A DNA stretch of 64,000 bases from Patescibacteria group bacterium (GTDB lineage: Bacteria; Patescibacteriota; JABMPQ01; JAQVVF01), in contig JBAZSC010000002.1 of NCBI GenBank assembly GCA_041662665.1, positions 165,234 to 229,233 on the forward strand. Direction: 5' to 3'. The translations under genes and the position numbers were made by a program. Below are positions 1-48,124 of the stretch, piece after piece (position 1 is the first letter of the stretch; the number at the start of each line of letters is the position of its first letter). The notes under the pieces were generated by a model. It was not told the origin of the DNA and did no database searches. It was given only the letters and a program-made list of their open reading frames with translations.

Positions 1-372
1 AAAACTTATGAAATTAGATTAGAAAACGACAAAGAAGTTGATAAAAAATTAGTCTCTGAAGAAAAAACTCTAGAGCCTCAAAACAAAATTATAGTTTATG
101 GTACAAAAAAACATCCACAAGGCAAGGTAATTACTGGCGGTCGAGCAACTTACTATTACGGTCCAACTATCGCAGCATGCAATCTTTTTCCCAAAGGAAC
201 CAAACTTCGCGTTACTAATGTAGATAATGGCCAGAGTATTGAAGTTATTGTTGACGATACCGGCGGTTTTGGCTGGCCGACAGTAATTGATCTTCGCCAA
301 GATTATTTTGAAAAAATCGGCGGTACAACAAATGCCGGCATTATTAATGTTACAATAGAAGAAATCCTTTAG
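1..372 (+). CDS. Partial (5'-truncated) cell-wall-binding protein with G5-like and 3D (RlpA/MltA-like double-psi beta-barrel) domains
   Basis: An open frame runs from nt 1 to the TAG at 370-372. The translation GGRATYYYGPTIAACNLFPKGTKLRVTNVDNGQSIEVIVDDTGGFGW... is typical of the 3D domain found in YabE/Rpf/MltA proteins. The listed minus-strand ORF 70..393 is its antisense shadow. Confidence 0.6.
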   Translation, partial: KTYEIRLENDKEVDKKLVSEEKTLEPQNKIIVYGTKKHPQGKVITGGRATYYYGPTIAACNLFPKGTKLRVTNVDNGQSIEVIVDDTGGFGWPTVIDLRQDYFEKIGGTTNAGIINVTIEEIL

Positions 373-567
373 AATGCCTAAATCTATTGCCAAATTGCTA
401 ATCCTATGCTAAAATCAAAGAACTAGAATAATTTTAAATAAAACAAACAGTGTTCAACAATTTAGCAATTGAACAATTAAAAATTTTGGAATACAAAATT
501 TTTAAGCAATTCAACATATTTAACCAATCTAACTAGTCTAACCAGTTTAACTCATTAATCAATACGT

Positions 568-783
568 ATGTCTAATATCTTAAGTATTATCCAAATTGTT
601 ATTTCTGTCTTTTTAATGATCACAATTTTAGTTCAAAATAAAGGCGTCGGATTATCTGCCACCTTTGGCGGTGAAGGCAATGTTTACCGTACCAAAAGAG
701 GTGCAGAAAGAGCCATTTTTATAACTACAATAGTTTTGGCTGTACTATTCTTAGTTACGGCTATGCTAAATCTGTTTTTCTAA
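568..783 (+). CDS. secG: Preprotein translocase subunit SecG
   Basis: The 71-aa product has two TM helices separated by a Gly-rich loop (LVQNKGVGLSATFGGEGNVY...VLAVLFLVTA). This closely matches the known SecG pattern LLQ..K..GLSGA..GG....VLAVLFF. Confidence 0.7.
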   Translation: MSNILSIIQIVISVFLMITILVQNKGVGLSATFGGEGNVYRTKRGAERAIFITTIVLAVLFLVTAMLNLFF

Positions 784-799
784 AACCAAACTAGCTTAA

Positions 800-2524
800 A
801 TGAACAAATTTAAAACGGAGGACAAAAAACAAAAATTTCCTCATTTTTCTCAGCTTAAATTTCTTCCAAAGACTCTAAACAAAAAAGAAAAAATTCAAAG
901 CTTAGTCCTAATTATAATTTTGATTTTTAGTTTAGGATTTTTAGGCTATCAAGAATATACAAAAAGAATTGAAGTAATTGCCAAAGATGGCGGAAGATAT
1001 ACTGAAGGCGTTGTTGGCACGCCAAAATTTGTTAATCCATTATATTCTCAAACTAGTGACGTAGATTCAGATCTTACAAAACTGATTTACAGAGGCTTAA
1101 TGAAATATAATGCCAATCAAGAATTAGTCCCTGATCTGGCTGAATCTTATGAAATTTCCAAAGATAAAAAAATCTATACTTTCAAACTAAAAAATAACGT
1201 CAAATGGCATAACAATGAATCGTTTAATGCTGATGATGTCATTTTTACAGTTCAAGCAATCAAAAACCCAGAGTATCAAAGTCCTTTACAAATCAATTTT
1301 GAAGGCGTCGAAGTCAGCAAGATTGACGATTTTACTGTCCAATTCACTTTGCAGAAAGAAAAATATTCTCCATTTCTTACCGAAAATACACTTTTTGGCA
1401 TCATTCCCAAAAAAGTTTGGGAAAGCATTCCACCAAAAAATGCGCCTTTTTCAGAACAAAATTTAGTTCCTGTAGGATCAGGACCTTTCAAATTCAAAGA
1501 ATATAAAAAAGATAAAACTTCTGGCCAAATTGTTTCTTATACTCTTGAAAAATTTCCTGATTATTATGGCAAAAAACCATATCTTTCAGAAATAATTTTC
1601 AAATTTTATAATGATTATCCTGATTTAGCAAAAGCTTACAACAAAAAACAAATTGACGCCATTAGCTATATTCCAATTGAAGAACAACAAAATATCAAAA
1701 AAGAAATAAATTCTTTCAATCTTAATTTACCTCAATATTACGCTATCTTTTTTAACACTGATCAAAATGATGCATTGAAATATAAACCAGTCCGTCAAGC
1801 TTTAAATTTTGCAATTGATCGCGATAAAATAGTTAGCGAAGCTTTAAACAAACAAGCAATTTTAATTGATTCTCCAATTCTGCCAAATTATCAAGAATAT
1901 AATCCAGATGCCAAAAAATATAATTTTGATTTGGAAAAAGCAAAAAAAACTTTAAAAAAAGGCGGTTGGACAAAACAAGGAGATTATTTAGCTTTTGAAG
2001 ACACGACGCTTGAAATAACTTTAACTATCATCAACCAACCAGAATTTCAAAAAATAGCTGAAATTATCAAATCAAATTGGGAAAGTTTAGGAGTCAAAGT
2101 CAATATTGAAGCCCTAGAGGCAACTGATCTTCAATCAAATTATATTCGACCAAGACAATATCAAGCTTTGCTTTATGGACAATTACTAGGCCATGATCCA
2201 GATCCATATCCATTCTGGCATTCTTCACAAGCTAAAGATCCAGGTTTGAATTTAACATCTTTACAAAGAGATAAAATTGATAAGTTATTAGAAACTGCCC
2301 GCCAACAAATCAATCCTGAAGAACGCAAAAAAACTTATCAAAAATTTCAAGAACTTTTAATCAATGAAGCTCCTGCAATATTTTTATACAGTCCAACTTA
2401 TTTGTATGGACAGAATAAAAAAGTTAAAGGCTTCAACCAAAAATTTACTTTTGTTCCATCAGACCGATTTTCAGATGTGGAAAATTGGTACGTCAAAACA
2501 AAATTAAAGATAAAAAATCCCTAA
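800..2524 (+). CDS. ABC transporter substrate-binding protein, family 5 (peptide/nickel-like), N-terminal membrane anchor
   Basis: The 574-aa product has an N-terminal TM segment, and its length and architecture fit the SBP_bac_5 family (OppA/DppA-like). No permease or ATPase genes are adjacent. Confidence 0.7.
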   Translation: MNKFKTEDKKQKFPHFSQLKFLPKTLNKKEKIQSLVLIIILIFSLGFLGYQEYTKRIEVIAKDGGRYTEGVVGTPKFVNPLYSQTSDVDSDLTKLIYRGLMKYNANQELVPDLAESYEISKDKKIYTFKLKNNVKWHNNESFNADDVIFTVQAIKNPEYQSPLQINFEGVEVSKIDDFTVQFTLQKEKYSPFLTENTLFGIIPKKVWESIPPKNAPFSEQNLVPVGSGPFKFKEYKKDKTSGQIVSYTLEKFPDYYGKKPYLSEIIFKFYNDYPDLAKAYNKKQIDAISYIPIEEQQNIKKEINSFNLNLPQYYAIFFNTDQNDALKYKPVRQALNFAIDRDKIVSEALNKQAILIDSPILPNYQEYNPDAKKYNFDLEKAKKTLKKGGWTKQGDYLAFEDTTLEITLTIINQPEFQKIAEIIKSNWESLGVKVNIEALEATDLQSNYIRPRQYQALLYGQLLGHDPDPYPFWHSSQAKDPGLNLTSLQRDKIDKLLETARQQINPEERKKTYQKFQELLINEAPAIFLYSPTYLYGQNKKVKGFNQKFTFVPSDRFSDVENWYVKTKLKIKNP

Positions 2525-2546
2525 TTAACTGATTGATTAGTTTAAT

Positions 2547-2629
2547 GCCGGAGTGGCGAAATGGCAGACGCGTAGCGTTCAGGACGCTATGTTCTTTTGG
2601 ACATGTGGGTTCGACTCCCACCTTCGGCA
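2547..2629 (+). tRNA. tRNA-Leu (anticodon CAG), type II with long variable arm
   Basis: A cloverleaf can be folded by eye. The acceptor stem is GCCGGAG/CTTCGGC, the D-arm is TGGCGAAATGGCAG, the anticodon stem-loop is TAGCG-TTCAGGA-CGCTA (anticodon CAG), the variable arm is long, and the T-arm GTGGGTTCGACTCCCAC is followed by discriminator A. Confidence 0.8.
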
Positions 2630-2645
2630 GTAACTTACAACTTCT

Positions 2646-3245
2646 ATGATAAAAACTATTATCTTTGATATTGATGGAATGATTATTAAGAGAGAAATGT
2701 ATTTTAGCCAATATTACTCACAAAAATTCAAAGTTCCTATAGAAAAAATGCTTCCATTTTATAATAATAAATTTCAACTTTGTTTAATTGGAAAAGCAGA
2801 TCTAAAAAAAGAAATTGCCAAATATCTAAATCAATGGAAATGGAAAAAATCAGTCGATGATTTTCTCTTACTTTGGTTCAAATACGAAAGCAATCTAGAT
2901 AATAAAGTTTTGGAAAGCATAAAAAAATTGAGAAAGAAAAAGATCAATTGTTATATTGGTACTGACAACGAAAAATATCGTGTCAACTATCTACTTAACA
3001 ATCTGAAATTAGCAAAATATTTTGATGGAATTTTTGCTTCATCCAAAATTGGTTACCAAAAATCACAACAAGAATTTTGGTCACAAGTCTACAAAAGTCT
3101 TAAGCAACCTAACAAATCAGAAATCCTATTTTGGGACGATGATCCAAAAAACGTAAAGTCAGCACAAGATTTTGGCTTCAACGCTAAAGTCTATACTAAC
3201 TTTTCAGATTACGAAAACAAAATAAAATTATTAATTAACATTTAA
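2646..3245 (+). CDS. HAD-superfamily hydrolase
   Basis: The N-terminal motif IIFDIDGMI is HAD motif I (DxDG), and a C-terminal motif WDDDPKNV is also present. Confidence 0.7.
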   Translation: MIKTIIFDIDGMIIKREMYFSQYYSQKFKVPIEKMLPFYNNKFQLCLIGKADLKKEIAKYLNQWKWKKSVDDFLLLWFKYESNLDNKVLESIKKLRKKKINCYIGTDNEKYRVNYLLNNLKLAKYFDGIFASSKIGYQKSQQEFWSQVYKSLKQPNKSEILFWDDDPKNVKSAQDFGFNAKVYTNFSDYENKIKLLINI

Positions 3246-3329
3246 CAACAAAAAACAAAAACATTTTAAAAGTAAATTTTTATTTACTAATTAACAAATA
3301 AAACTAATAAACTAATTAAACTAAATATT

Positions 3330-5021
3330 ATGAACAATAAATTTATTCCAAAATTAAAAATTATTCCGCTAGGCGGATTAGAAGAAATAGGTCGAAATAT
3401 GACCTTAATTGAATATGCAAGAGACATCATCATCATTGATATGGGCTTGCAATTCCCAGAAGAAAACATGCCTGGAATTGATTATATCATTCCAAACATC
3501 GCCTATTTGAAAGGCAAAGAAAATTATATTAGAGGCGTTATTATTACTCATGGTCATTTTGACCATATCGGCGCTATCCCTCACATCATGGATCGCATTG
3601 GCAACCCAACTATTTTTACTGCCAAATTAACAAGGGCAATGATTGAGAAACGCCAGGAAGAATTTGATAAAAAAGAAAAATTATCAATTTATACAATTTC
3701 AGAACAAGACCAAATTCAGCTTGGCCAATTTAAAGTTGAATTTTTTAAAGTCAATCACAACATTCCAGATGGCTATGGAGTAATCGTCCACTCGCCTGTC
3801 GGTACGATCATTCATACTGGCGATTTTAAATTTGATCCAACACCAGTTGGAGACATGCCAGCAAATAAAGAAAAATTAGCCAAAATTGGAAAACAAGGAG
3901 TTCTCGCATTAATGTCAGATAGCACTGGTGCTGAAAATTCAGGTCATTCCATTTCTGAAAAAACGATTATGGAAACATTAAACAAAATTATTTCTGAAGC
4001 AAAAGGCAGAATCATTTTAGCTACTTTTTCATCACTTATTACTCGTATTCAACAAGTTATTTTCATTGCTGAAAAATTAGGCAAAAAAGTTGCAATCGAA
4101 GGTTTTTCTATGAAAACAAATGTTGAAATCTGCAAAAAGCTAGGCTATTTAAAAACTGGCAAGAAAATTCTCGTCAGTACAAAACAAGCTTTGAAATTAC
4201 CAAAAGATAAAATAATTATTTTATGCACTGGTGCTCAAGGTGAAGAAGCAGCTGTTCTAATGCGTATTGCCAATCAAGATCACAAAGAAATAGAAATCGA
4301 AAAAGGAGATTCTGTTATTTTTTCATCATCAGTAATTCCAGGAAATGAAAGAAGTGTTCAAAGATTAAAAGATAATTTGACTAGATTAGGTGCTGATATT
4401 TTTCATTACAAAATGATGGATGTCCATTCCAGCGGTCATGGTTTTATTGATGATCTAACAGAAATGATTACCTTAACCAAACCAAAATATTTTATTCCAG
4501 TTCATGGAAATCATTTCTTATTAAAATTACATGGCGATATTGCAAGAAACACAAATATCGTCAAAGATCCAAATATCTTTGTTTGCGACAATGGCCAAAT
4601 CATGGAATATCAAAAACAAGGCGAAACAGTTGTCGGCGAATTAACAAAACGAAAAGTTCCAGCAGGACATGTTATGGTTGATGGACTTGGCGTCGGCGAT
4701 GTTTCAAATGTTGTTTTAAGAGATCGTCAAGCTATGGCAGAAGATGGCATGTTCGTGATAATCTTAACTATGGATGGAAATACTGGAAAATTAGTCAGCG
4801 ATCCAGATATCATCTCTCGTGGCTTTGTCTTTATGAAAGAATCAAAAAGATTAATTGGCCAGACCAAAGAAAGAATCAAAAAAATCTTAATTGATCATGA
4901 TCCAAAGACTTCATCAAATGATACTTATATCAGAAATAAAGTCCGCGATCAAATTGGTCAATTCTTATTTACCAGAACTCAAAGAAGACCAATGATTCTT
5001 CCAGTCATCATCGAAGTTTAA
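3330..5021 (+). CDS. rnj: Ribonuclease J (metallo-beta-lactamase/beta-CASP RNase)
   Basis: The product has the HxHxDH-type motif ITHGHFDHIGAIP, the N-terminal motif IIPLGGLEEIGRNM, and a 563-aa length typical of RNase J. Confidence 0.85.
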   Translation: MNNKFIPKLKIIPLGGLEEIGRNMTLIEYARDIIIIDMGLQFPEENMPGIDYIIPNIAYLKGKENYIRGVIITHGHFDHIGAIPHIMDRIGNPTIFTAKLTRAMIEKRQEEFDKKEKLSIYTISEQDQIQLGQFKVEFFKVNHNIPDGYGVIVHSPVGTIIHTGDFKFDPTPVGDMPANKEKLAKIGKQGVLALMSDSTGAENSGHSISEKTIMETLNKIISEAKGRIILATFSSLITRIQQVIFIAEKLGKKVAIEGFSMKTNVEICKKLGYLKTGKKILVSTKQALKLPKDKIIILCTGAQGEEAAVLMRIANQDHKEIEIEKGDSVIFSSSVIPGNERSVQRLKDNLTRLGADIFHYKMMDVHSSGHGFIDDLTEMITLTKPKYFIPVHGNHFLLKLHGDIARNTNIVKDPNIFVCDNGQIMEYQKQGETVVGELTKRKVPAGHVMVDGLGVGDVSNVVLRDRQAMAEDGMFVIILTMDGNTGKLVSDPDIISRGFVFMKESKRLIGQTKERIKKILIDHDPKTSSNDTYIRNKVRDQIGQFLFTRTQRRPMILPVIIEV

Positions 5022-5022
5022 A

Positions 5023-5067
5023 CCACAGATTTGCACAGATACTGAACAGATTTAACACAGATACTAA
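5023..5067. repeat. CACAGAT tandem array (reverse orientation of the ATCTGTG family)
   Basis: The sequence is ccacagatttgcacagatactgaacagatttaacacagatact. Confidence 0.7.
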
Positions 5068-5091
5068 AACAAATTAAACAAAAATAAAATT

Positions 5092-5520
5092 ATGTTTTTA
5101 CACAAAGAGTTAAGTTGGAAAATTATTGGTATTTGTATGAAAATTCAAAATGAATATGGTTCAAATCATAATGAAAGAATTTATCATTCATTACTAATAG
5201 AGCAATTTACTCTTCAAAAAATCAATTTTTTATCCAAACCCAAAATTCCAGTTTTATCTAAACAAACAGGCAAAAAAATTGGCCTATATGAACCTGATTT
5301 TCTCATCGAAAAATTAATAATCTTAGAAATCAAAGCCAAACCTTTTAATTTTAAAAAAGATGAAACTCAATTACAAGAATATCTGAATACAACGCCTTAT
5401 GAAATTGGTTATTTAGTAAATTTTGGTTTTCAAAATAAATTATATTTCAAAAGAATTATCTGTACCAATAATCTCAAAAATTTCCTAAGCCTTCCTAAAA
5501 AATTATATGCGTCTCAATAA
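5092..5520 (+). CDS. GxxExxY family protein (PD-(D/E)XK-like)
   Basis: The N-terminus GICMKIQNEYGSNHNERIYHSLL matches the GxxExxY signature. The gene is flanked by inverted arrays of the ATCTGTG repeat (5023-5067 and 5533-5582). Confidence 0.6.
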   Translation: MFLHKELSWKIIGICMKIQNEYGSNHNERIYHSLLIEQFTLQKINFLSKPKIPVLSKQTGKKIGLYEPDFLIEKLIILEIKAKPFNFKKDETQLQEYLNTTPYEIGYLVNFGFQNKLYFKRIICTNNLKNFLSLPKKLYASQ

Positions 5521-5532
5521 ATCAGTAGTAAA

Positions 5533-5582
5533 GTATCTGTGTCTCTGTGAACATCTGTCTCGTATCTGTGTAAGATCTGTGG
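5533..5582. repeat. ATCTGTG tandem array (period about 10-11 bp)
   Basis: The sequence is gtatctgtgtctctgtgaacatctgtctcgtatctgtgtaagatctgtgg. Confidence 0.7.
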
Positions 5583-5607
5583 TAAACTAATATCTAACAA
5601 TAAAAAT

Positions 5608-6597
5608 ATGTCTAAAGTTATTTTCTCAGGTATTCAACCAAGTGGAGAATTACACATTGGCAATTATTTCGGTGCAATTAAAAACTGGTTAGAATTACAA
5701 AAACAAGAAAGTCTTTGCTATTTCTGCGTTGTTGATTTACATGCCATTACTATCGATTATGATCCAAAACAATTTCAAGACAAAATTCTAGACACTATAG
5801 CAACTTATCTTGCGTGCGGAATTGATCCAGAAAAATCAATTATTTTTGTTCAATCAAAAGTCAAAGAACATGCTGAATTAGCCTGGCTTTTAAACACTAT
5901 TACTCCTATTTCCGAGCTTGAAAGAATGACTCAATACAAAGATAAGCGCGCCCAACATATCAAAAACGTTAATATTGGCCTTCTAGATTATCCAGTTTTA
6001 CAAGCCGCCGATATATTGCTTTATAATACAAACATCGTTCCAGTGGGCCAGGATCAAAAACAGCATATTGAATTAGCAAGAACTATTGCCAATAAATTCA
6101 ATACTAAATTTGGAAAGACTCTTACAATTCCAGAACATTTCATTCCAGAAGTTGGCGCTAAAATTATGTCGCTTCTTGAGCCAACCAAAAAAATGTCCAA
6201 ATCCCATAATCCAAAATCATATATTTCTTTATCTGATTCCAAAGAACATATTGAGAAAAAAATAATGTCAGCAGTTACTGATTCTGATAATAAAATATTT
6301 TTTGATCCAGAAAAAAAGCCAGCTATTTCAAATCTATTATCAATCTATCATTTAGCAACTGGCTGGACTTTGCAACAAATTCAAGATAAATATAAAGATT
6401 CAACTAGCTATGCCCAATTTAAAAAAGATTTGGCAGAAAATATAATAAAATTATTGCAACCGATTCAAGATAAAAAACAAGAATTATTAAAAGACGAAAC
6501 TAAGCTTTTAGAAATCTTAGATAATAGCACCAAAAAAGCTCAAACCGAAGCTACAAAAACAATGCTTATTGTTAAGAAAAAAATGGGTTTAATTTAA
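5608..6597 (+). CDS. trpS: Tryptophanyl-tRNA synthetase
   Basis: The class I HIGH motif (GELHIGNYFGA) and the KMSKS motif are present. The length is 329 aa. Confidence 0.9.
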   Translation: MSKVIFSGIQPSGELHIGNYFGAIKNWLELQKQESLCYFCVVDLHAITIDYDPKQFQDKILDTIATYLACGIDPEKSIIFVQSKVKEHAELAWLLNTITPISELERMTQYKDKRAQHIKNVNIGLLDYPVLQAADILLYNTNIVPVGQDQKQHIELARTIANKFNTKFGKTLTIPEHFIPEVGAKIMSLLEPTKKMSKSHNPKSYISLSDSKEHIEKKIMSAVTDSDNKIFFDPEKKPAISNLLSIYHLATGWTLQQIQDKYKDSTSYAQFKKDLAENIIKLLQPIQDKKQELLKDETKLLEILDNSTKKAQTEATKTMLIVKKKMGLI

Positions 6598-6785: not shown

Positions 6786-6818
6786 CAAAAACGAGACCAT
6801 TTCAGCCTCGTTTTTTTA
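6786..6818 (+). terminator. Rho-independent terminator downstream of trpS/small ORF
   Basis: A hairpin AAAAACGAG-N11-CTCGTTTTT is followed by a T-run. Confidence 0.5.
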
Positions 6819-6821
6819 TTT

Positions 6822-6870
6822 ATCTGTGTCTCTGTGCTTTATCTGTAAAGTATCTGTATAAAATCTGTGG
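6822..6870. repeat. ATCTGTG tandem array
   Basis: The sequence is atctgtgtctctgtgctttatctgtaaagtatctgtataaaatctgtgg. Confidence 0.7.
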
Positions 6871-10944: not shown

Positions 10945-11183
10945 ACTTTTTTATTTTACATCCATCACTAGTTTTATTAATTTTATCAATTTTACTTATT
11001 TTACTCATACCATTCCATCCTGTTTTTACAAAAAGTTTGCCAGAACCTCTAAAAAATCTTTAAAAAAATTTAGACAATATTATTATATCAAATTGTTTTT
11101 AATTAACAAAAATATAATCTTTAAAATTAGTTCTTCTCTTGCAAAAAACAAGGAAATAAGCTAAAATTCAGTTTGAATCTAAA

Positions 11184-11230
11184 TATCTGTGTTATCTGTC
11201 ATAATCTGTAATTAATCTGTGTTAAATTTG
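11184..11230. repeat. ATCTGTG tandem array immediately upstream of ychF
   Basis: The sequence is atctgtgttatctgtcataatctgtaattaatctgtgttaaatttgtag. Confidence 0.7.
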
Positions 11231-11236
11231 TAGCTT

Positions 11237-12295
11237 ATGAAAATCGGTATCGTTGGTCTTCCAAACGTTGGCAAGTCAACACTTTTCAACGCTCTGACCA
11301 AAAAACAAGTTGACGCTTCAAATTATCCTTTTTGTACAATCGACCCAAATGTCGGTATTGTTAGCGTACCTGATGAAAGAATAGATCAACTAGTAAAAAT
11401 TGATCATCCTGCAAAAATCGTACCTGCAGTTGTAGAATTTGTTGATATTGCTGGTCTTGTTCGAGGTGCTCATAAAGGTGAAGGTCTTGGCAACAAATTT
11501 TTAACTCACATTAAAGAAGTTGACGCTATTGTCCATGTTCTAAGAAATTTTTCTGACAAAAATGTTACTCATGTTCATGGAAAAATCGACCCCAAAGAAG
11601 ATGCCGATACAGTTGAATTAGAATTGATTTTAGCTGATCTTGATCTTGTTTCAAAATTATTTGAACAAGCAAATAGAAATTCCAAATCAGGCGATAAAGA
11701 AATGATTGCCAGAGCATCAGCATTAGAAAAAATTAAATTAGCATTAGAAAAAAATGAGCTTGCAAGAAAAGTCACTTTAGAAAAAGATGAAAAAGATTCA
11801 ATCAGAGATGTTCAACTTTTAACAACCAAACCAATTCTGTATGTTTTAAATATTGATGAAAATGAAATTGGCAAAGAAATTAATTGTCCAAAACAACCTT
11901 GTATTCCAATTGCCGCTAAAATTGAATCAGAATTAGTTCAGTTATCAGCCGAAGAAGTTAAAGAATATTTACAAGAATATAATCTAAAAGAAACAAGCTT
12001 GAATAAATTTATCAAAGCATCATATGATCTTTTAGGTTTAATCACTTTTTTCACTTCTGGCATTACCGAAACTCATGCCTGGACAATCAAAAATGGTAGC
12101 AATGCACAACAAGCTGCTGGCAGAATCCATACTGATTTTTATAATAAATTTATTCGAGCTGAAATTATTTCGTTTGACGATTATGTATCTTCAGGCGGAG
12201 AATCAAAAGCCAAAGAAAAAGGCAAAATGAGAGTTGAAGGCAAAGACTATATTATCAAGGATGGCGATGTCGCCTATTTCAGAATTGGTCAGTAA
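11237..12295 (+). CDS. ychF: Ribosome-binding ATPase YchF (Obg-family GTPase)
   Basis: The G1 motif GIVGLPNVGKSTLFNALT, a coiled insert and a C-terminal TGS-like domain are present. Confidence 0.9.
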   Translation: MKIGIVGLPNVGKSTLFNALTKKQVDASNYPFCTIDPNVGIVSVPDERIDQLVKIDHPAKIVPAVVEFVDIAGLVRGAHKGEGLGNKFLTHIKEVDAIVHVLRNFSDKNVTHVHGKIDPKEDADTVELELILADLDLVSKLFEQANRNSKSGDKEMIARASALEKIKLALEKNELARKVTLEKDEKDSIRDVQLLTTKPILYVLNIDENEIGKEINCPKQPCIPIAAKIESELVQLSAEEVKEYLQEYNLKETSLNKFIKASYDLLGLITFFTSGITETHAWTIKNGSNAQQAAGRIHTDFYNKFIRAEIISFDDYVSSGGESKAKEKGKMRVEGKDYIIKDGDVAYFRIGQ

Positions 12296-13129: not shown

Positions 13130-14188
13130 TTAGTCAACTTTCGCTGCTTTAATCAAGTCCCAAATTTTCTTTTCAATCATATTTGCAACTTTTGGATTAT
13201 CTCGCAAAAATTGTTTTGAAGCTTCTCTACCTTGACCCAATTGCGCTTTATCAAAAGTATACCAAGATCCAGACTTGCCCAAAACTTTGTAAACAACTCC
13301 AGTATCCAATAAATCACCAACTCTTGAGATTCCTTCATTATACATAATATCAAATTCTGTCGTCTGAAATGGCGGAGCAACTTTATTTTTAACAATTTTT
13401 ACTTTCACTCTATTTCCAATAATTTTATCATTCATTTTAATTTGAGCTGCTCTTCTTAATTCAATTCTCACTGAAGAATAAAATTTCAATGCTTTTCCAC
13501 CAGTTGTTTCTTCTGGATTGCCAAACATCACACCAATCTTCATTCTTATTTGATTCAAAAATATTACTGTTGTTTTTGAACTAGAAATTGCAGCTGTTAA
13601 TTTTCGAAGAGCTTGCGACATTAATCTTGCATGCAAACCCATATGAGAATCACCCATATCGCCTTCAATTTCTGCGCGCGGAGTCAAAGCTGCTACAGAA
13701 TCGATTACAATTACATCAACTGCGTTTGATCGAACAAGAGTTTCAACAATTTCCAAAGCTTGCTCGCCTGTTTCTGGCTGAGAAATTAGCATATCATTAA
13801 TATTAATGCCAATTTTTTTTGCATAATCAGGATCCAAAGCATGTTCAGCGTCAACAAATGCCGCTAATCCGCCTTTTTTCTGAATATTAGCAATGATATG
13901 TTGTGCCAAAGTCGTCTTGCCAGAACTTTCCATACCAAAGATCTCAATAATTCTTCCTCTTGGCACTCCGCCAATTCCCAAAGCAATATCCAAAGAAATT
14001 GATCCAGTAGTAATTGCATCAATTTGCATTGTCTTTACTTCTCCTAACTTCATTATCGCTCCTTCACCAAAACGATCCTTAATCTGATCAATCGCTGATT
14101 CCACAGCCTTTGCCTTTCCCTCCATCGCACTACTTTTTTTTGCATCTTTCGCCATAAAATTAAATTGTTTAATTACTAAATTGCTCAA
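13130..14188 (-). CDS. recA: Recombinase RecA
   Basis: The Walker A motif [13 protein letters not shown] is present, and RecA L1/L2-loop context is conserved throughout. Confidence 0.95.
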
Positions 14189-14224
14189 TTGTTAAATCGC
14201 TAAATTGTTAAAACAAACGAACAT

Positions 14225-14330
14225 CGCCAACAATTTAACAATTCAACAATTTAACATTTTTTAACTAGTCTAACTTATCTAACTCGTTTTTTACTTTACG
14301 AACTTTAAAAACTTTAAGAACTTTATAACT
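14225..14330. repeat. Composite repeat module: AATTGTTAAAT inverted units, then TAACTAGTCTAAC/TATCTAACTCG, then AACTTTAAAAACTTTAAGAACTTTATAACT (recA upstream region)
   Basis: The same three repeat families occur in combination at 48125-48215. AACTTTA units also occur at 13091-13129 and 32691-32740. TAACTAGTCTAAC units also occur at 521-560 and 44551-44590. Confidence 0.65.
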
Positions 14331-15375
14331 ATTTGATTTCTTTATCACGTACAACTTCACCTTCTTTTCCCAAAAATCCCAAATCTTTTCCATTCAAAAC
14401 AGCTTTTGTTTTATCTGCTTTTCCTGATGACACAAAAAACTTTTCTTTTGCTTTAAAAGTTTGCGAAGCATCAGGCAACATCATTCCAGAATAAATTAAT
14501 CTATCATCAGCCTTTATTTGTATCCAAGCTGCCTTGTCTACAACTGTAATTACTAATTCTGATTCTTGTTTTACAGGAGTTGTCGGTGTTTTATTTTTAT
14601 CTTTTGAATTAGGATCTTTTACAGGTTCTTCTTTTTTATATTCTCCTCTCAAAGCTAATTTTTCATTTTCTTTTTGTCTCTCCAAATCACCAGTCAATTC
14701 AACCATAATATTTCTCTTTACTTCCGTACTCTTACCGAATTTATTATTAGCAACGATTTTTAGAATATTCAATCCATCTTGCAAAGCAACAGTCTCTTTA
14801 AATTTTCCGCTTCCATCAACTTGAATCGGCTGATCATTTATTTTTACTTCTGCTTCCAAATCTGTTTCGCCAACCAAAACAATCACATCATCATTTACTG
14901 TTTTATCTTCAGATGGATCCAAAATTGTTAATACTGGCGGTTTTGACAATCCGCTTAATTGAAACCATATATACAAAAACATTACAAAAACAGCCAAACA
15001 GACTAAACAAATCTTTATCAATCTTGGCGTAATTACAAATGAATTAGACTTATATGATGACAATGGAGCGGGCTCTTTTGATTTCTTAATATTTTCCTGT
15101 ATTCCTCGCTCATTTTTATAAATATTTAATGCCGCTTGAAAATCAATTCCAACATAATTACAGTAGCTTCTCAAAAAACCTCTGACATAAACATCAGCCG
15201 GCAATTCACTGTATCTTCCTTCTTCCAAATATCTAATATATGTTTCTCGAACTCTAATACTTTGTGAAATTTCTTTTAACGTCAAATTAGCCTCTTCTCT
15301 TGCATTCTGCAATCTCTCGCCCAAAGTTTCGGCACTTTTCAGACGATGAGTAGTAAAACCTTCACCTAATTTCAT
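14329..15375 (-). CDS. rodZ: RodZ-like cytoskeleton protein (HTH-XRE, TM, extracellular domain)
   Basis: The N-terminal HTH is followed by the RodZ-type motif YVRGFLRSY, a single TM segment and a C-terminal DUF4115-like region. Confidence 0.65.
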   Translation of the reverse strand: MKLGEGFTTHRLKSAETLGERLQNAREEANLTLKEISQSIRVRETYIRYLEEGRYSELPADVYVRGFLRSYCNYVGIDFQAALNIYKNERGIQENIKKSKEPAPLSSYKSNSFVITPRLIKICLVCLAVFVMFLYIWFQLSGLSKPPVLTILDPSEDKTVNDDVIVLVGETDLEAEVKINDQPIQVDGSGKFKETVALQDGLNILKIVANNKFGKSTEVKRNIMVELTGDLERQKENEKLALRGEYKKEEPVKDPNSKDKNKTPTTPVKQESELVITVVDKAAWIQIKADDRLIYSGMMLPDASQTFKAKEKFFVSSGKADKTKAVLNGKDLGFLGKEGEVVRDKEIK

Positions 15376-15614
15376 AACAGATTATTATTACTTTCCTAAA
15401 CCAAAAAAATAAAAATGAAAAAAATATTTTTTTACGAACAAAGCTATTAACTTTTTTGATTAAAAAAGTTAATCAGCACCTTTTGGAAATATGACCCAAC
15501 AAAATTTAAAAATTAAGCTAATAAATTAATAAATAGTCACACTCATCATATCAAAACCTCAAAAGGTGCGGGCGAAATACTGCAGTGAGTAAAAAAATAA
15601 TTTTTTCATTAATT

Positions 15615-17903
15615 TCATAACTGATTGTTATTAAACTGTTTATTTGCTAATTCTTCTTTGCTTGGAAGTCCCATCGTATCACCTGGCGCAACTAAAATTT
15701 CTCTTGGCTTTGCACCATCAGCTTGTCCAACAATTCCTCTTTCTTCCAAAATATCTAAAAGTCGAGCAGCTCTCGCATAACCAACTCTCAATCTTCTTTG
15801 CAATAATGACGCTGAAGCCTTTCCTGACATTATAACAGTTTCTTTTGCTTCTTCATATAATTCGTCATCAACTTCACCCTCAACTGATATTCCTCCATTA
15901 GCCATCATTTTTTGTTGCTTTTGAACTATTGATTCATCATATTCTGGCTGTCCTTTATCTTTCAAATATTTAGTTACAGAATGGATATCTTTTTCAGTTA
16001 CAAATGACCCTTGAACTCTTCTTGGCTTACCAAGATCTGGAGAGATAAAAAGCATATCACCATTGCCTAATAATCTTTCCGCTCCACCAACATCAATAAT
16101 CGTCCTTGAATCAATTTGTGATGCTACTGCAAAAGCAATTCTCGCTGTAATATTAGCTTTAATTAAACCAGTAATAACATTAACTGACGGTCTTTGTGTT
16201 GCCAAAATCAAATGGATGCCAGTTGCACGAGCCATTTGCGATAATCTGACAATTGCTGCTTCAACCTCTTTAGATGCAACAGCCATCAAATCAGCCAACT
16301 CATCAATTACAACTACGATAAATGGCAATCGATCTTTTCCAGCCGAAGCATTATATGAATGAATATCTCTTTTTTTGCATTCTGCAAACAAAGTAAAACG
16401 TTTCTCCATTTCCGATACTGTCCAACGCAATGCATTAACAGTTTTATCAACTTCAGTAATTACTGGAGTTAATAAATGCGGAATATCTGCATAACTCGTC
16501 ATTTCTACTTTTTTTGGATCAACTAAAATCAATCTCAAATCATCAGGAGAATTTTGGTATAACAAACTCATAATAATCGTATTCAAACAGATTGACTTTC
16601 CAGAACCAGTTGCACCAGAAATCAAAAGATGAGGCATTTTATCAAGCTCGCAAACTGTTGGACTTCCTGCCACATTCCTACCCAAAACCATTGTTAAAGA
16701 AGATTTTGAACCAACAAATTCTTTGCTTTCTAAAACTTCTCTCAAACGAACAATCGCTACTTTCTGATTTGGCACTTCTACGCCAACCAATGATTTACCA
16801 GGAATTGGCGCTTCAAGTCTTATTGGATGTGCTGCAAGAGCCAATGCTAAATCATTATTCAAAGTAACAATTTGACTTAATTTTACTCCTTCGTCAGGCT
16901 TAAAAGTATATTGTGTAACTGTTGGACCGACATTAACTTCATGCATTTTTACATTAATATTGAAACTTTTCAAAGTCTGCTGAATTACTCTCGCATTATT
17001 CTTGACATCACCAGCCATTGGCGTAGTGCTTTGATTATTCAATAGATCAAGAGGATAAGGTTTCCAATCGCTCCATTTCTTTGAACGTATTATACTCTTT
17101 TTTGCTTTTCCATCTTCCATATTTTTCACTCGCAATTCTGAATTGCCTTCGCCTTCAACAGGTACAACAACTCTTTCGTTCATTCCTTTGATTGTTAATT
17201 CTCCTTCTATTGGCTGCTTATGTAATAATTTCAAAATAAATAATCTCAATTGCTTGAAACTTTCGATAACATCTTTCAAAGAAATATTAAAAGTCATTAT
17301 TGTTCCAATTGTAAAAATCGCCAGCAAAATCACTCCTGAAGCCCAAAATCCCATAAAAAGCTGCAATGGATAAGAAAAAACATAACCCAAATATCCTCCG
17401 CCAACTCCATCTTTTATTACGCCTAACGCTGCTTCTCCATTATATTTCACATGAAAAACTCCGCATAAACCAACTAACAACATTATTGATCCAATCAAAT
17501 TATATTTGCTGAAATTCGGCTCTTCCAACCTTTCTGATCTAAAAATTGCAATAGCTAAACCAATTAATAAAAATGGAAAAATATATGCTGGCCTGCCCAT
17601 TGCCTGCCTTAAGCCAATACTTAAAAAATGTCCCATTTTTCCAGCCATTCCAACTAATGCCAATAAACTTAAAATTCCAACAATAAAAAAGACAACCAGC
17701 ATAATGCCTCGAACGACTTCGGGCTGCATGCCAATATTAAACAAAAAACCCATTGAGCCTTTTCTTTTTCGCCCATGTATTTTTGGCGGTCTGCCTGGTT
17801 TTCTTTTTTGTTGCTTCAAAATTGAAGCTGGAATTATATTTTTCGCTTTTGGCGGACGTCCTCTTTGTGCCATTTTATTTTGTTTATTTTTATTTAATTT
17901 CAA
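15615..17903 (-). CDS. ftsK: DNA translocase FtsK/SpoIIIE
   Basis: N-terminal TM helices are followed by the motor-domain Walker A GATGSGKS and a C-terminal winged-helix gamma domain. Confidence 0.9.
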   Translation of the reverse strand: MKLNKNKQNKMAQRGRPPKAKNIIPASILKQQKRKPGRPPKIHGRKRKGSMGFLFNIGMQPEVVRGIMLVVFFIVGILSLLALVGMAGKMGHFLSIGLRQAMGRPAYIFPFLLIGLAIAIFRSERLEEPNFSKYNLIGSIMLLVGLCGVFHVKYNGEAALGVIKDGVGGGYLGYVFSYPLQLFMGFWASGVILLAIFTIGTIMTFNISLKDVIESFKQLRLFILKLLHKQPIEGELTIKGMNERVVVPVEGEGNSELRVKNMEDGKAKKSIIRSKKWSDWKPYPLDLLNNQSTTPMAGDVKNNARVIQQTLKSFNINVKMHEVNVGPTVTQYTFKPDEGVKLSQIVTLNNDLALALAAHPIRLEAPIPGKSLVGVEVPNQKVAIVRLREVLESKEFVGSKSSLTMVLGRNVAGSPTVCELDKMPHLLISGATGSGKSICLNTIIMSLLYQNSPDDLRLILVDPKKVEMTSYADIPHLLTPVITEVDKTVNALRWTVSEMEKRFTLFAECKKRDIHSYNASAGKDRLPFIVVVIDELADLMAVASKEVEAAIVRLSQMARATGIHLILATQRPSVNVITGLIKANITARIAFAVASQIDSRTIIDVGGAERLLGNGDMLFISPDLGKPRRVQGSFVTEKDIHSVTKYLKDKGQPEYDESIVQKQQKMMANGGISVEGEVDDELYEEAKETVIMSGKASASLLQRRLRVGYARAARLLDILEERGIVGQADGAKPREILVAPGDTMGLPSKEELANKQFNNNQL

Positions 17904-28744: not shown

Positions 28745-28803
28745 AATCTGTATGCATCTGTGTCTCTGTATCAAATCCGTTATAAATCTGTGTAAAATTT
28801 GTG
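28745..28803. repeat. ATCTGTG tandem array in the rpoB upstream region
   Basis: The sequence is aatctgtatgcatctgtgtctctgtatcaaatccgttataaatctgtgtaaaatttgtg. Confidence 0.7.
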
Positions 28804-40332: not shown

Positions 40333-41307
40333 TTATTTTAGAGAATCCAAATAATATTTTAAAATTTTAGTCCAAATTTCTAATAATTTTTCTTTCTCTT
40401 CAAGAGGAATATCTGATCCGCCTATATCTGCCAAAATTGTCCCAACAGATCTTCCCAACATTCCTAAATCAAACCCTTTTTTATCAGTAAGTTCATTCTT
40501 AACAAAAATATTTTTCCAATCCAAACTTTCTTTCAATGCCAAATCATAATTTATAATCTTTCTTGCATCTTGAATTATTGACCAAACTATAAAAGGTCCT
40601 TCGGCAAATTCAGGTTGCCAACAACAATGAGCAAAATCAGTCAAATAATACTTGTCCGCCGAAGTCCCACAGGACGTAGGCGGATTTACCTTAAAAATTT
40701 CCTTTGGCTTAAAATGTCCATGTGTCCAGATAAATTTATATCCATTGCCATCTTTTTTCAAAACATCAATCGCTTTTTCACACAAATCATAACTCTCTTG
40801 TTTTAACCAACTTTTTTCTTTTGCCAATTTTTTCCATTTTGATATATTTCTCAACGCCCAATCGCCAACTGTCTTATCTTTAAAAATTTTTAATTCAGGA
40901 TTTTTGGGCCAGATCTTTTTATATTCGATAAAAACTTTAAAAAATTCTTCTCTGTTTTCAACTTTCGGCATGCCCTCAAAAATATGTTTGCTTGTATCAA
41001 TGTATTCTTCAATCAGCCAGCCGGAATGATCATCATACATTTTATAATTATATAATTTCGGAGCAGTTAAAATTTCACTTTTATTATTTTTTAAAAATTC
41101 TTTCAAATTCAAAGGTTCATACACTTCTCTTGGATCTTTCCACATTTTCAAAATCGCTTTTTTATTTTCAAAATTTCCTTTAAAAATAATATTTCTTGTT
41201 TTGCCTTTTCTATAATAGGTACTTGAATAAATTTCTTTTTCGGAAACAAAGCGAGCCTCTAAAATTATCCTTTTTATTTCCGCATCGCTTAAAAAATCAA
41301 ATTTCAT
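40333..41307 (-). CDS. Phosphotransferase (APH/choline-kinase-like kinase fold) with a palindromic element inserted near the catalytic loop
   Basis: The motifs HGHFKPKEIF and YYLTDFAH resemble the HGD.hp.N / DFE motifs. The element at 40655-40684 encodes NPPTSCGTSADK between them. Confidence 0.55.
   Translation of the reverse strand: MKFDFLSDAEIKRIILEARFVSEKEIYSSTYYRKGKTRNIIFKGNFENKKAILKMWKDPREVYEPLNLKEFLKNNKSEILTAPKLYNYKMYDDHSGWLIEEYIDTSKHIFEGMPKVENREEFFKVFIEYKKIWPKNPELKIFKDKTVGDWALRNISKWKKLAKEKSWLKQESYDLCEKAIDVLKKDGNGYKFIWTHGHFKPKEIFKVNPPTSCGTSADKYYLTDFAHCCWQPEFAEGPFIVWSIIQDARKIINYDLALKESLDWKNIFVKNELTDKKGFDLGMLGRSVGTILADIGGSDIPLEEKEKLLEIWTKILKYYLDSLK
40655..40684. repeat. Palindromic element variant TCCGCC-GAAGTCCCACAGGACGTAG-GCGGA in frame in the kinase-like gene
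   Basis: It has the same 6-bp arms and the GAAG...AG loop ends, but the loop core differs. Confidence 0.55.
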
Positions 41308-41316
41308 AACTCAAAA

Positions 41317-41394
41317 TATCTGTGTTATTTGTGTAAAATTCTTATTAATTTGTCATCAATCTGTGTAATTTGTGTTCATCTGTAATAAATCTGC
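41317..41394. repeat. ATCTGTG/ATTTGTG tandem array
   Basis: The sequence is atctgtgttatttgtgtaaaattcttattaatttgtcatcaatctgtgtaatttgtgttcatctgtaataaatctgcc. Confidence 0.7.
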
Positions 41395-41396
41395 CG

Positions 41397-47802: not shown

Positions 47803-47849
47803 ATCTGTGTATCTGTGTAAATCCGTCTTAAATCTGTGTTAAATCTGTC
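47803..47849. repeat. ATCTGTG tandem array upstream of lon
   Basis: The sequence is atctgtgtatctgtgtaaatccgtcttaaatctgtgttaaatctgtc. Confidence 0.7.
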
Positions 47850-48124
47850 GCCTTCATCTCTTCCCATCCATTCTTTTCTTCACTAAAAATATAAGCTTTA
47901 ACATAATTAATCATTTCTGATTCCGAATCAGCATCATCAACATTAACATTTTTAAAGCCAGATTTTTTTTGTTTTTCTACCCATTCCAATCTCATCTTGC
48001 CTTGAGGATTTTCAAATTCAATCCATTCCATTTTTTCTCCATAACCTTCATCAATTCCTTTATCAGAAACTTCAAATTTTTTTTCAACATTTTCCAAAAT
48101 CAAATCCCATTTTTCTTTAGTCAT
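47828..48124 (-). CDS. Hypothetical small protein
   Basis: The 98-aa ORF has no recognisable motifs. A composite repeat module lies in its upstream region. Confidence 0.4.
   Translation of the reverse strand: MTKEKWDLILENVEKKFEVSDKGIDEGYGEKMEWIEFENPQGKMRLEWVEKQKKSGFKNVNVDDADSESEMINYVKAYIFSEEKNGWEEMKATDLTQI

Follow-up and report, generated by a model that had tools for sequence, protein, structure and literature searches.

Inverted ATCTGTG arrays bracket a GxxExxY nuclease gene

We analyzed 64,000 nucleotides of a Patescibacteria group bacterium contig (JBAZSC010000002.1, positions 165,234 to 229,233; hereafter the window), which carry seven short arrays of the heptamer ATCTGTG in the spacers between genes, including the five-unit array at 47803..47849. 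Our analysis indicates that these arrays are the repeat arms of widespread, hairpin-forming inverted-repeat insertion elements, and that a gene encoding a GxxExxY nuclease is the characteristic cargo of these elements. We counted 20 copies of the heptamer in the window where 5.0 would be expected (the highest count in any shuffled sequence was 12), and the spaced pair ATCTGT-N1-5-ATCTGT occurs 13 times against 0.01 expected. Clustering of these matches yields seven arrays of 5-8 units, in which successive units are spaced by 8-9, 10-11, 11, and 11 bp, and six of the seven align in register over ~55 nt. A profile of the aligned arrays recovers only the same seven loci from the window (E = 2e-16 to 4e-4, with the next match at E = 1.7), and has no match in the 7.1 kb upstream of the window. 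A first-pass annotation of the sequence had listed these loci as arrays of 3-6 units spaced 8-11 bp apart; we find that the arrays are real, phased, and non-random, and that they lie at the listed positions. The same annotation proposed comparing counts inside and outside coding sequences: all seven arrays are intergenic, though 89% of the window is coding (chance ~2e-7). The sole overlap with an open reading frame (ORF) is 22 nt of the 47803..47849 array, at the 3′ end of ORF 47828-48124.

Across the window, the units fit the heptamer CRCNGAT (ATCNGYG on the other strand) at a period of ~10-11 bp. We define an arm as a run of this heptamer on one strand (here CACAGAT, the complement of ATCTGTG), repeated every 10-11 bp and with an outer edge reading ...ATCTGTGG. 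The outer unit is exactly ATCTGTGG in three of the window arrays, and degenerate in the remaining ones. A full element consists of a left arm, a cargo gene or a short loop, and a mirror-image right arm.

One such element is present in full, between the genes for RNase J and trpS. Its left arm (5023..5074, minus strand; nhmmer E = 1.5e-12) is made of five units and has its outer end 1 nt past the RNase J stop codon; the plus-strand sequence reads CCACAGAT.... Its right arm (5521..5582, plus strand; E = 4e-16) begins immediately past the stop codon of the cargo gene, ends in ATCTGTGG, and lies 25 nt ahead of the trpS start codon. The two arms form an inverted pair that brackets the ORF at 5092..5520 (plus strand) within 17 and 0 nt, and they can pair over ~45 bp with a folding energy of -52.8 kcal/mol, compared to -14.6 kcal/mol in shuffled sequences (z = -10.7). 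The array at 5023 was thus correctly placed in the first-pass annotation, but it lies on the minus strand, as the inverted partner of the array at 5521. Besides this gene-bearing element, the window contains five single arms with the same ~55-nt layout.

The ORF at 5092..5520 encodes a 142-residue GxxExxY protein (Pfam PF13366, PDDEXK_3, 5.8e-23; NCBIfam TIGR04256, 74.8 bits). Over 38 homologues, residues E28, D69, E79, K81, and Q93 are invariant and Y97 nearly so, and all six are present in the window protein; by sequence, they correspond to the predicted PD-(D/E)XK catalytic set and an accompanying QxxxY motif. An AlphaFold 2 model of the protein is confident (pLDDT = 93), and its best neighbors among solved structures in Foldseek are the alkaline exonuclease LHK-Exo, lambda exonuclease, and the Cas4 protein SSO0001 (E = 4.5e-4 to 1.4e-3, TM = 0.40-0.49). 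The model points to a small predicted nuclease with a Cas4/lambda-exonuclease-like fold. A sequence search of the PDB with the window protein found no relative, and none of the PADLOC defense-system models matched it. The GxxExxY/PDDEXK_3 family comprises 25,657 clusters at 50% identity. Many proteins with this domain are ~265 residues long with two domain copies, or are 400-900 residues long with the domain embedded; these may represent nested cassettes, read-through gene calls, or real fusions.

Phased inverted arms are a general property of GxxExxY genes

We collected 80 metagenome loci by protein similarity only, using a two-sequence query; we worked with the matches listed, and counts from this set are lower bounds. 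Identical 6-mers at a distance of 10 occur 460 times in the flanks of the GxxExxY genes, versus 42 times in 2.3 times more background sequence. Inward-facing CRCNGAT arms flank 66 of 77 GxxExxY genes, 48 of them on both sides, while the background contains 14 arms per 215 kb. Arrays are enriched ~47-fold in GxxExxY flanks. The heptamer varies between loci, with CGCAGAT, CACAGAT, CGCCGAT, and CACGGAT among the variants, and GC content does not drive the choice of variant. More distant homologues have arms of other types: ACAGAA and CGGAT in two Patescibacteria, ACACGAAT and CGCGAAT in Planctomycetota and Omnitrophota, and CRCRGAG in cultured Bacteroides finegoldii. The presence of arms at 66 of 77 loci picked by protein alone, together with the variant arms of distant homologues, argues from sequence that phased inverted arrays are a general property of GxxExxY genes, with ATCTGTG being the version found in this organism. 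The cassettes are co-oriented with their neighboring genes to a moderate degree across the metagenome loci (25 versus 12 upstream and 32 versus 21 downstream), and in 10 of 10 loci that we inspected by hand.

Elements with and without cargo occur across bacterial phyla

We scanned species-representative genomes with the pattern ATCTGTN4-5ATCTGTN4-5ATCTGT and obtained at least 120 loci, in which genes were assigned by crude ORF calling; numbers derived from the listed loci are lower bounds rather than a census. The listed loci include members of Prevotella, Bacteroides, Pedobacter, Treponema, Scytonema, Nostoc, Chloracidobacterium, Planctomycetes, Verrucomicrobia, NC10, Chloroflexota, Deltaproteobacteria, Chromatiaceae, and Patescibacteria, as well as two metagenome-assembled genome (MAG) contigs labelled as archaeal; taxonomic labels of MAGs, and the archaeal ones above all, may be wrong. 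Their GC content ranges from 36 to 72%. The canonical element reads CCACAGATnnnCACAGATnnnCACAGAT, then a loop, then the mirror image with the end ATCTGTGG. Among 200 arms in these loci, 118 form 59 pairs in minus-then-plus order, and only five adjacent pairs have the opposite order. The other 82 are solo by our pairing criterion, some of them with a degenerate partner nearby. The loops of the pairs are mostly 4-191 bp long, and four measure 375-536 bp. When we searched the 120 loci with the window protein, we found five GxxExxY ORFs, all directly against arms: four fill the 375-536 bp loops, and the fifth (locus L090) abuts an arm.

Complete hairpins fold with energies of -47 to -57 kcal/mol (z = -8 to -13). 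Different taxa have unrelated loop sequences, and some loops hold a second, nested hairpin. At variable positions, the spacers between heptamers agree better between the two arms of a pair than across elements (0.67 versus 0.49), as do the five bases outside the last unit (0.77 versus 0.46). Extension of the stem past the arms is not significant overall (p = 0.11-0.15), and about ten elements have long outer stems. In other genomes, 33 complete pairs lie between co-directional genes, nine between convergent genes, and four between divergent genes, a distribution that runs counter to the bias toward gene starts that the first-pass annotation had expected. We searched 5,426 E. coli genomes, 50,697 phage records, and 72,556 plasmids for a matching hairpin, and found one in only two of the plasmids and in neither of the other two sets.

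Because the window spacers are AT-rich and the units are phased at 10-11 bp, the arrays could in principle be intrinsically bent DNA, as the first-pass annotation had suggested, or low-complexity repeats without a specific origin. We give almost no credence to this idea. What is conserved is the heptamer and not A/T tracts: high-GC members keep the heptamer and have spacers such as GAA, GGA, and GCA without A-tracts. In addition, the arrays are linked to one gene family, and their preference for inverted-pair order is very strong (59 to 5).

Some lineages carry their own versions of the element. A Prevotella MAG (L003:700-1300) has three gene-less elements head to tail within 600 bp, with loops of 90-97 bp that are nearly identical, and a related copy in a second Prevotella MAG (L110:6350-6430) marks these as a lineage-specific multi-copy subfamily. 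In another locus, a four-unit array (L207:15073-15110) falls within a called Wzy_C ORF (14079-16322, minus strand), reflecting either a wrong gene call or an arm inserted into coding sequence.

Elements reside in a 23S rRNA gene, beside tmRNA, and within operons

A Candidatus Falkowbacteria contig (JACRDY010000039.1; locus L116) carries two complete ATCTGTG hairpins within its 23S rRNA gene (Rfam LSU model, 1094 bits), at L116:785-895 and L116:1455-1590. One places 90 nt where the model has 8 (model positions 225-233), and the other, at a helix tip, places 101 nt where the model has 11 (model positions 684-694). These insertions resemble ORF-less intervening sequences (IVSs) of 23S rRNA. In a Patescibacteria contig (JBAZBH010000002.1; locus L014), the transfer-messenger RNA (tmRNA) gene at 4667-5070 (Rfam, 107.6 bits) is flanked on each side by a complete hairpin of this same family, at 4588-4653 and 5077-5175, within 7-14 nt. 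Rfam searches of eight hairpin-bearing loci returned only far-sub-threshold miRNA-hairpin noise for the hairpins themselves. The window contains no rRNA gene, and only a tRNA passes the Rfam gathering score there.

GxxExxY cassettes also occur within conserved operons. Three lie in F1Fo ATP-synthase operons (L202:10001-10429, L205:10001-10441, and L211:1501-1893): two related Patescibacteria have a cassette between atpD and atpC, and a Planctomycetota MAG has one between atpB and atpE. A further cassette is located between PSD1 and DUF1501 genes. In little-studied lineages such as Patescibacteria, arrays of this type mark insertion hot spots within rRNA genes and conserved operons.

Arrays differ between close relatives

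We compared the window with two relatives (L209 and L210) that share its gene order and whose TrpS proteins are 84-86% identical to that of the window. No arrays were found in 21 kb of L209 and L210, including the regions ahead of trpS and ychF. The spacer between RNase J and trpS measures 586 bp with the element here; L210 has just 16 bp at this place, and L209 has a DUF5680 gene there instead. The ychF leader is ~45 bp longer here than in L210, matching the size of the array. These presence/absence differences suggest that arrays are gained and lost on a short evolutionary scale. The DUF5680 gene of L209 (L209:9505-9990) gives the impression that the RNase J-trpS spacer is a recurrent landing site for small accessory genes.

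Solo arms in the window and the promoter reading

The five solo arms of the window are all on the plus strand, and the RNA of neither strand forms appreciable structure by itself (0 to -7 kcal/mol, z ~0). The array at 47803..47849 (E = 1.3e-15) has units at 47803, 47811, 47822 (ATCCGTC), 47832, and 47843 (ATCTGTC), and lies 90 nt upstream of the minus-strand gene lon; its RNA is unstructured on both strands. The arm at 6822..6870 (E = 1.9e-16) has no self-structure; it follows a terminator-like hairpin (6787-6815), and on its other side is the stop codon of a convergent phosphoglucomutase gene. The arm at 11185..11231 (E = 2.3e-12) is located in the ychF leader, flanked by a promoter-like TTGCAA-17-TAAAAT sequence (11139-11167) and the ychF start codon at 11237. 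The arm at 28746..28802 (E = 7.5e-16) is upstream of rpoB, a minus-strand gene. The array at 41318..41394, which gives two overlapping profile matches (E = 1.4e-4 and 3.6e-4), is long and degenerate, with ~8 units of which many read ATTTGTG. The 28746, 41318, and 47803 arrays are each in a spacer between minus-strand genes. In the window, positions 1-6000 have a GC skew near zero, a positive AT skew, and genes on the plus strand; positions 6000-50000, where all five same-facing solo arms are found, have a strongly negative GC skew and nearly all genes on the minus strand.

The 41318 array wholly occupies the 89-bp spacer (41308-41396) between two minus-strand genes, and the gene at 40333-41307 has no Shine-Dalgarno-like sequence ahead of its ATG at 41307. 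The signals for translation and transcription of this gene are therefore either inside the array or absent.

The first-pass annotation interpreted the arrays as promoter-proximal, stacked TG-extended -10 elements of the kind used in low-GC bacteria, that is, as clustered sigma-70 promoters. The arrays do occupy the spacers ahead of several genes, and two units, ahead of trpS and ychF, match the extended -10 pattern TGNTANNNT on the sense strand. These are, however, the only two of ~36 units that fit a pattern that occurs 238 times in the AT-rich window, and the arrays before rpoB, lon, and gene 40333-41307 contain no sense-strand match at all. Sigma-70-like sites are no more frequent than in shuffled sequences, and none falls on an array; for ychF and lon, the best candidates are located elsewhere in the spacers or beyond. 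Orientation and position also fit poorly: the 28746 array is antisense to the orientation assumed for an rpoB promoter, and while the description of the arrays as lying mostly just upstream of gene starts is right in that they are intergenic, the 6822 array sits between two convergent 3′ ends and is upstream of no gene. Furthermore, the same arrays are found at 36-72% GC in many phyla (including Bacteroidota and cyanobacteria), in archaeal-labelled contigs, and in a 23S rRNA gene, and L209 and L210 have trpS and ychF without arrays ahead of them. We conclude that a promoter function is very improbable, and that the placement called promoter-proximal arises simply because the arrays are intergenic in a compact genome. 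A practical point for annotation is that arrays of this kind can pass for promoters, operators, or regulatory sites built from repeats.

The first-pass annotation also considered binding-site arrays for a global factor. The general notion of protein-binding sites is compatible with our data; the version in which the arrays are bound by a host chromosomal protein, nucleoid-associated or regulatory, and have nothing to do with mobility or GxxExxY genes, is one that we consider improbable. Direct repeats phased by one helical turn, intergenic placement, and the frequency of solo arrays speak for such a protein. Opposed to this are the tight, ~47-fold association of arrays with GxxExxY flanks, the patchy distribution across phyla, the lack of a matching hairpin in 5,426 E. 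coli genomes, the occurrence inside rRNA, and the absence of arrays at the same positions in close relatives; nor did a candidate host factor emerge.

Inspection also led us to reject two known types of site. A cluster of DnaA boxes was considered, as TGTGGATAA stands at some of the outer ends; the majority of units, however, depart from TTATNCACA. A Chi-like or polar site was rejected because the motif is clustered in spacers and not dispersed.

A proposed model for the elements as selfish cassettes

We think it moderately probable that the arrays as a whole are explained as arms of a selfish cassette of the intervening-sequence type, with the heptamers probably serving as protein-binding sites; movement of the cassette is something that we infer. 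In this model, the elements would act as selfish insertions in the manner of rRNA intervening sequences. By analogy with classic intervening sequences, the paired arms would form a duplex of ~28-45 bp in the transcript, from which RNase III would excise the cassette, and we propose that this excision is why insertion is tolerated in operons and even in rRNA. The stability of the hairpins and their rRNA and operon contexts make RNase III-type excision of paired elements plausible. The heptamers would be recognition sites for a protein acting on DNA, the likeliest reader being the element's own nuclease, with several copies lined up on one face of the helix. Single arms would be one-armed copies or remnants with no promoter role of their own.

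A different possibility is that the hairpins benefit the host: they would be processed by RNase III or another RNase, or would stabilize transcripts. An RNA-binding factor would then recognize the heptamers, and the GxxExxY gene would only take advantage of the sites. The great stability of the hairpins (-47 to -57 kcal/mol) agrees with this idea, as do their locations in a 23S rRNA gene, on both sides of a tmRNA gene, and within operons, the tendency of complete pairs to lie downstream of genes (co-directional or convergent neighbors), and the precedent of the Coxiella IVS. If the RNA were the selected form, mismatches between arms should favor G.U pairs on the transcribed strand; we found no such bias, either in empty hairpins (29:29) or in gene-bearing ones (70:54, p = 0.18). 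Many arms are solo and cannot fold, and solo arms have no preferred orientation with respect to transcription (16 against 17). For cleavage by RNase III, conservation of a heptamer across phyla would be unnecessary, and close relatives do without arrays at the same sites. Taken together, we regard a host-beneficial RNA function as unlikely. Because the heptamer is conserved across phyla, is phased by one helical turn, frequently occurs in solo arms, and has no RNA-strand signature, we consider selection for RNA pairing alone less likely than specific recognition of the sequence, for which a protein acting on DNA is the simplest candidate. The invariance of the nuclease's catalytic residues points the same way.

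Several observations weigh against the selfish-cassette model. We searched 59 pairs for a target-site duplication (a direct repeat of 3-8 bp at any offset) and found none, and no transposase or integrase is associated with the elements, whose only recurrent cargo is GxxExxY; the case for mobility consequently comes from presence/absence comparisons only. Some copies look old. The cassette protein between atpD and atpC is 55% identical between the two genomes that share it, compared to 82% for AtpD, and by sequence this cassette looks vertically inherited, so that elements can be long-lived residents rather than active movers. Similarly, the trpS-pgm spacer of the relatives is shorter than that of the window but has faint, degenerate array-like remnants, suggesting that the 6822 array may be of some age and not a recent insertion. 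The two plasmids with a matching hairpin are not among the eight plasmids that encode a GxxExxY gene. Heptamer variants track protein similarity only marginally (63.3% versus 62.4% identity, p ~0.015), which lends little support to the nuclease as reader of the heptamer. Finally, the model leaves the shared plus-strand orientation of the five solo arms in the window unexplained.

A bolder extension of the selfish-cassette model, which we offer tentatively and hold to be possible but doubtful, is that GxxExxY nucleases and phased-heptamer arms together make up an unrecognized, multi-phylum class of selfish intervening-sequence cassettes. The nuclease would then recognize the heptamer arrays, perhaps in the form of an extruded hairpin or of single-stranded DNA, and would spread the arms, alone or together with the gene, to intergenic spacers, operons, and rRNA helices. 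If true, bacterial rRNA intervening sequences would have one origin and one mechanism in common, and a family of ~25,000 protein clusters that lacks a function would gain one. Nearly every GxxExxY member that we examined sits between inverted phased heptamer arrays, and lone arrays occur by the hundreds. The arms therefore offer a defined DNA or RNA partner for a large, often multi-copy family without a known role, and bear on the origin and movement of bacterial rRNA intervening sequences.

Comparison with known repeat and insertion systems

Literature searches with exact two-unit repeat strings returned no papers, and publications on GxxExxY, PDDEXK_3, PF13366, or TIGR04256 contain incidental mentions in which the role is given as "unknown." In a 2024 survey of rRNA insertions in candidate phyla radiation (CPR) bacteria, PDDEXK proteins are absent from the listed cargo, and neither hairpins nor inverted repeats are mentioned. 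The arrays and their link to GxxExxY genes are apparently undescribed in Rfam and in the literature searched, and database family descriptions may hold a note on them. Among known systems, none fits fully; the closest are rRNA intervening sequences, REP/RAYT elements, miniature inverted-repeat transposable element (MITE)-like repeats, homing endonuclease genes, and iteron-like arrays.

REP/RAYT systems (REPINs), in which repetitive extragenic palindromic (REP) sequences are paired with a REP-associated tyrosine transposase (RAYT), resemble the elements in having one small gene between inverted copies of a repeat that is also scattered between genes, mostly downstream of them, and in having non-autonomous copies that outnumber the gene. 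They differ in that RAYT is an HUH/Y1 transposase whereas the gene here encodes a PD-(D/E)XK nuclease. Furthermore, REP units are imperfect palindromes and lineage-specific, while the units here are non-palindromic phased heptamers, with single arms that lack self-structure and a motif that spans phyla.

Palindromic repeats of the MITE type, such as the Correia elements of Neisseria, are processed at the RNA level. Like the elements described here, they are short, non-coding, multi-copy intergenic sequences with terminal inverted repeats that fold in transcripts, and they form lineage-specific subfamilies with a common internal sequence. Unlike for MITEs, we found no target-site duplication for the elements here and saw no related transposase-bearing insertion sequence, and their arms are internally repetitive with a motif conserved across phyla.

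Free-standing homing endonuclease genes, such as those of the phage seg/mob type, share with the GxxExxY cassettes a small nuclease gene that lies squeezed in between conserved genes of the host, and that some relatives have and others lack. GxxExxY proteins fall outside the recognized homing endonuclease families, however, and the repeat arms and gene-less copies have no counterpart in that model.

Iteron and centromere-like arrays, including plasmid iterons and ParR-parC, are also built from short direct repeats spaced by approximately one helical turn, a classic arrangement where proteins bind cooperatively along one face of the DNA. The arrays here neighbor housekeeping genes instead of replication or partition genes, and they are chromosomal, present at many loci, and usually arranged as inverted pairs, with a matching hairpin in two of 72,556 plasmids.

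Intervening sequences in 23S rRNA, known from Coxiella, Leptospira, Salmonella, and others, are likewise bounded by terminal inverted repeats, whose long stem encloses a small ORF in some cases; they are considered horizontally acquired and selfish, and are tolerated inside rRNA, as are the two Falkowbacteria 23S hairpins, one of them at a helix tip. In the window, such a long stem is formed by the 5023/5582 pair (-52.8 kcal/mol) and by none of the five solo arms. The window elements lie in intergenic spacers and operons and not in rRNA, and many copies of the element are single arms. The cargo also differs: the S23p protein of intervening sequences is a four-helix bundle, while the cargo here is a PD-(D/E)XK GxxExxY nuclease. 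The Coxiella burnetii 23S IVS has a 28-bp terminal inverted-repeat stem that is cut by RNase III, and three tandem GACAGAT heptamers ahead of its internal ORF (PMC4990558). Release from the transcript by RNase III, with no re-ligation, is established only for Coxiella and other classic intervening sequences. As judged from this published description, the Coxiella heptamers share an ACAGAT core with the arms, a similarity that we treat as a lead; they follow one another in tandem every 7 bp, compared to 10-11 bp in the elements described here.

We also considered four-helix-bundle 23S_rRNA_IVP genes as an alternative cargo of the same arms, and rejected this idea. The Pfam-annotated 23S_rRNA_IVP gene of locus L207 has no arms. 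A related gene (jackhmmer, E = 5.5e-35) in a Hydrogenophilus MAG (L096:1240-1700) likewise encodes a four-helix bundle, and is flanked by inverted arrays of a different repeat, GGGAAAN. This arrangement hints that the other classic "IVS protein" family may have the same cassette layout with a repeat of its own.

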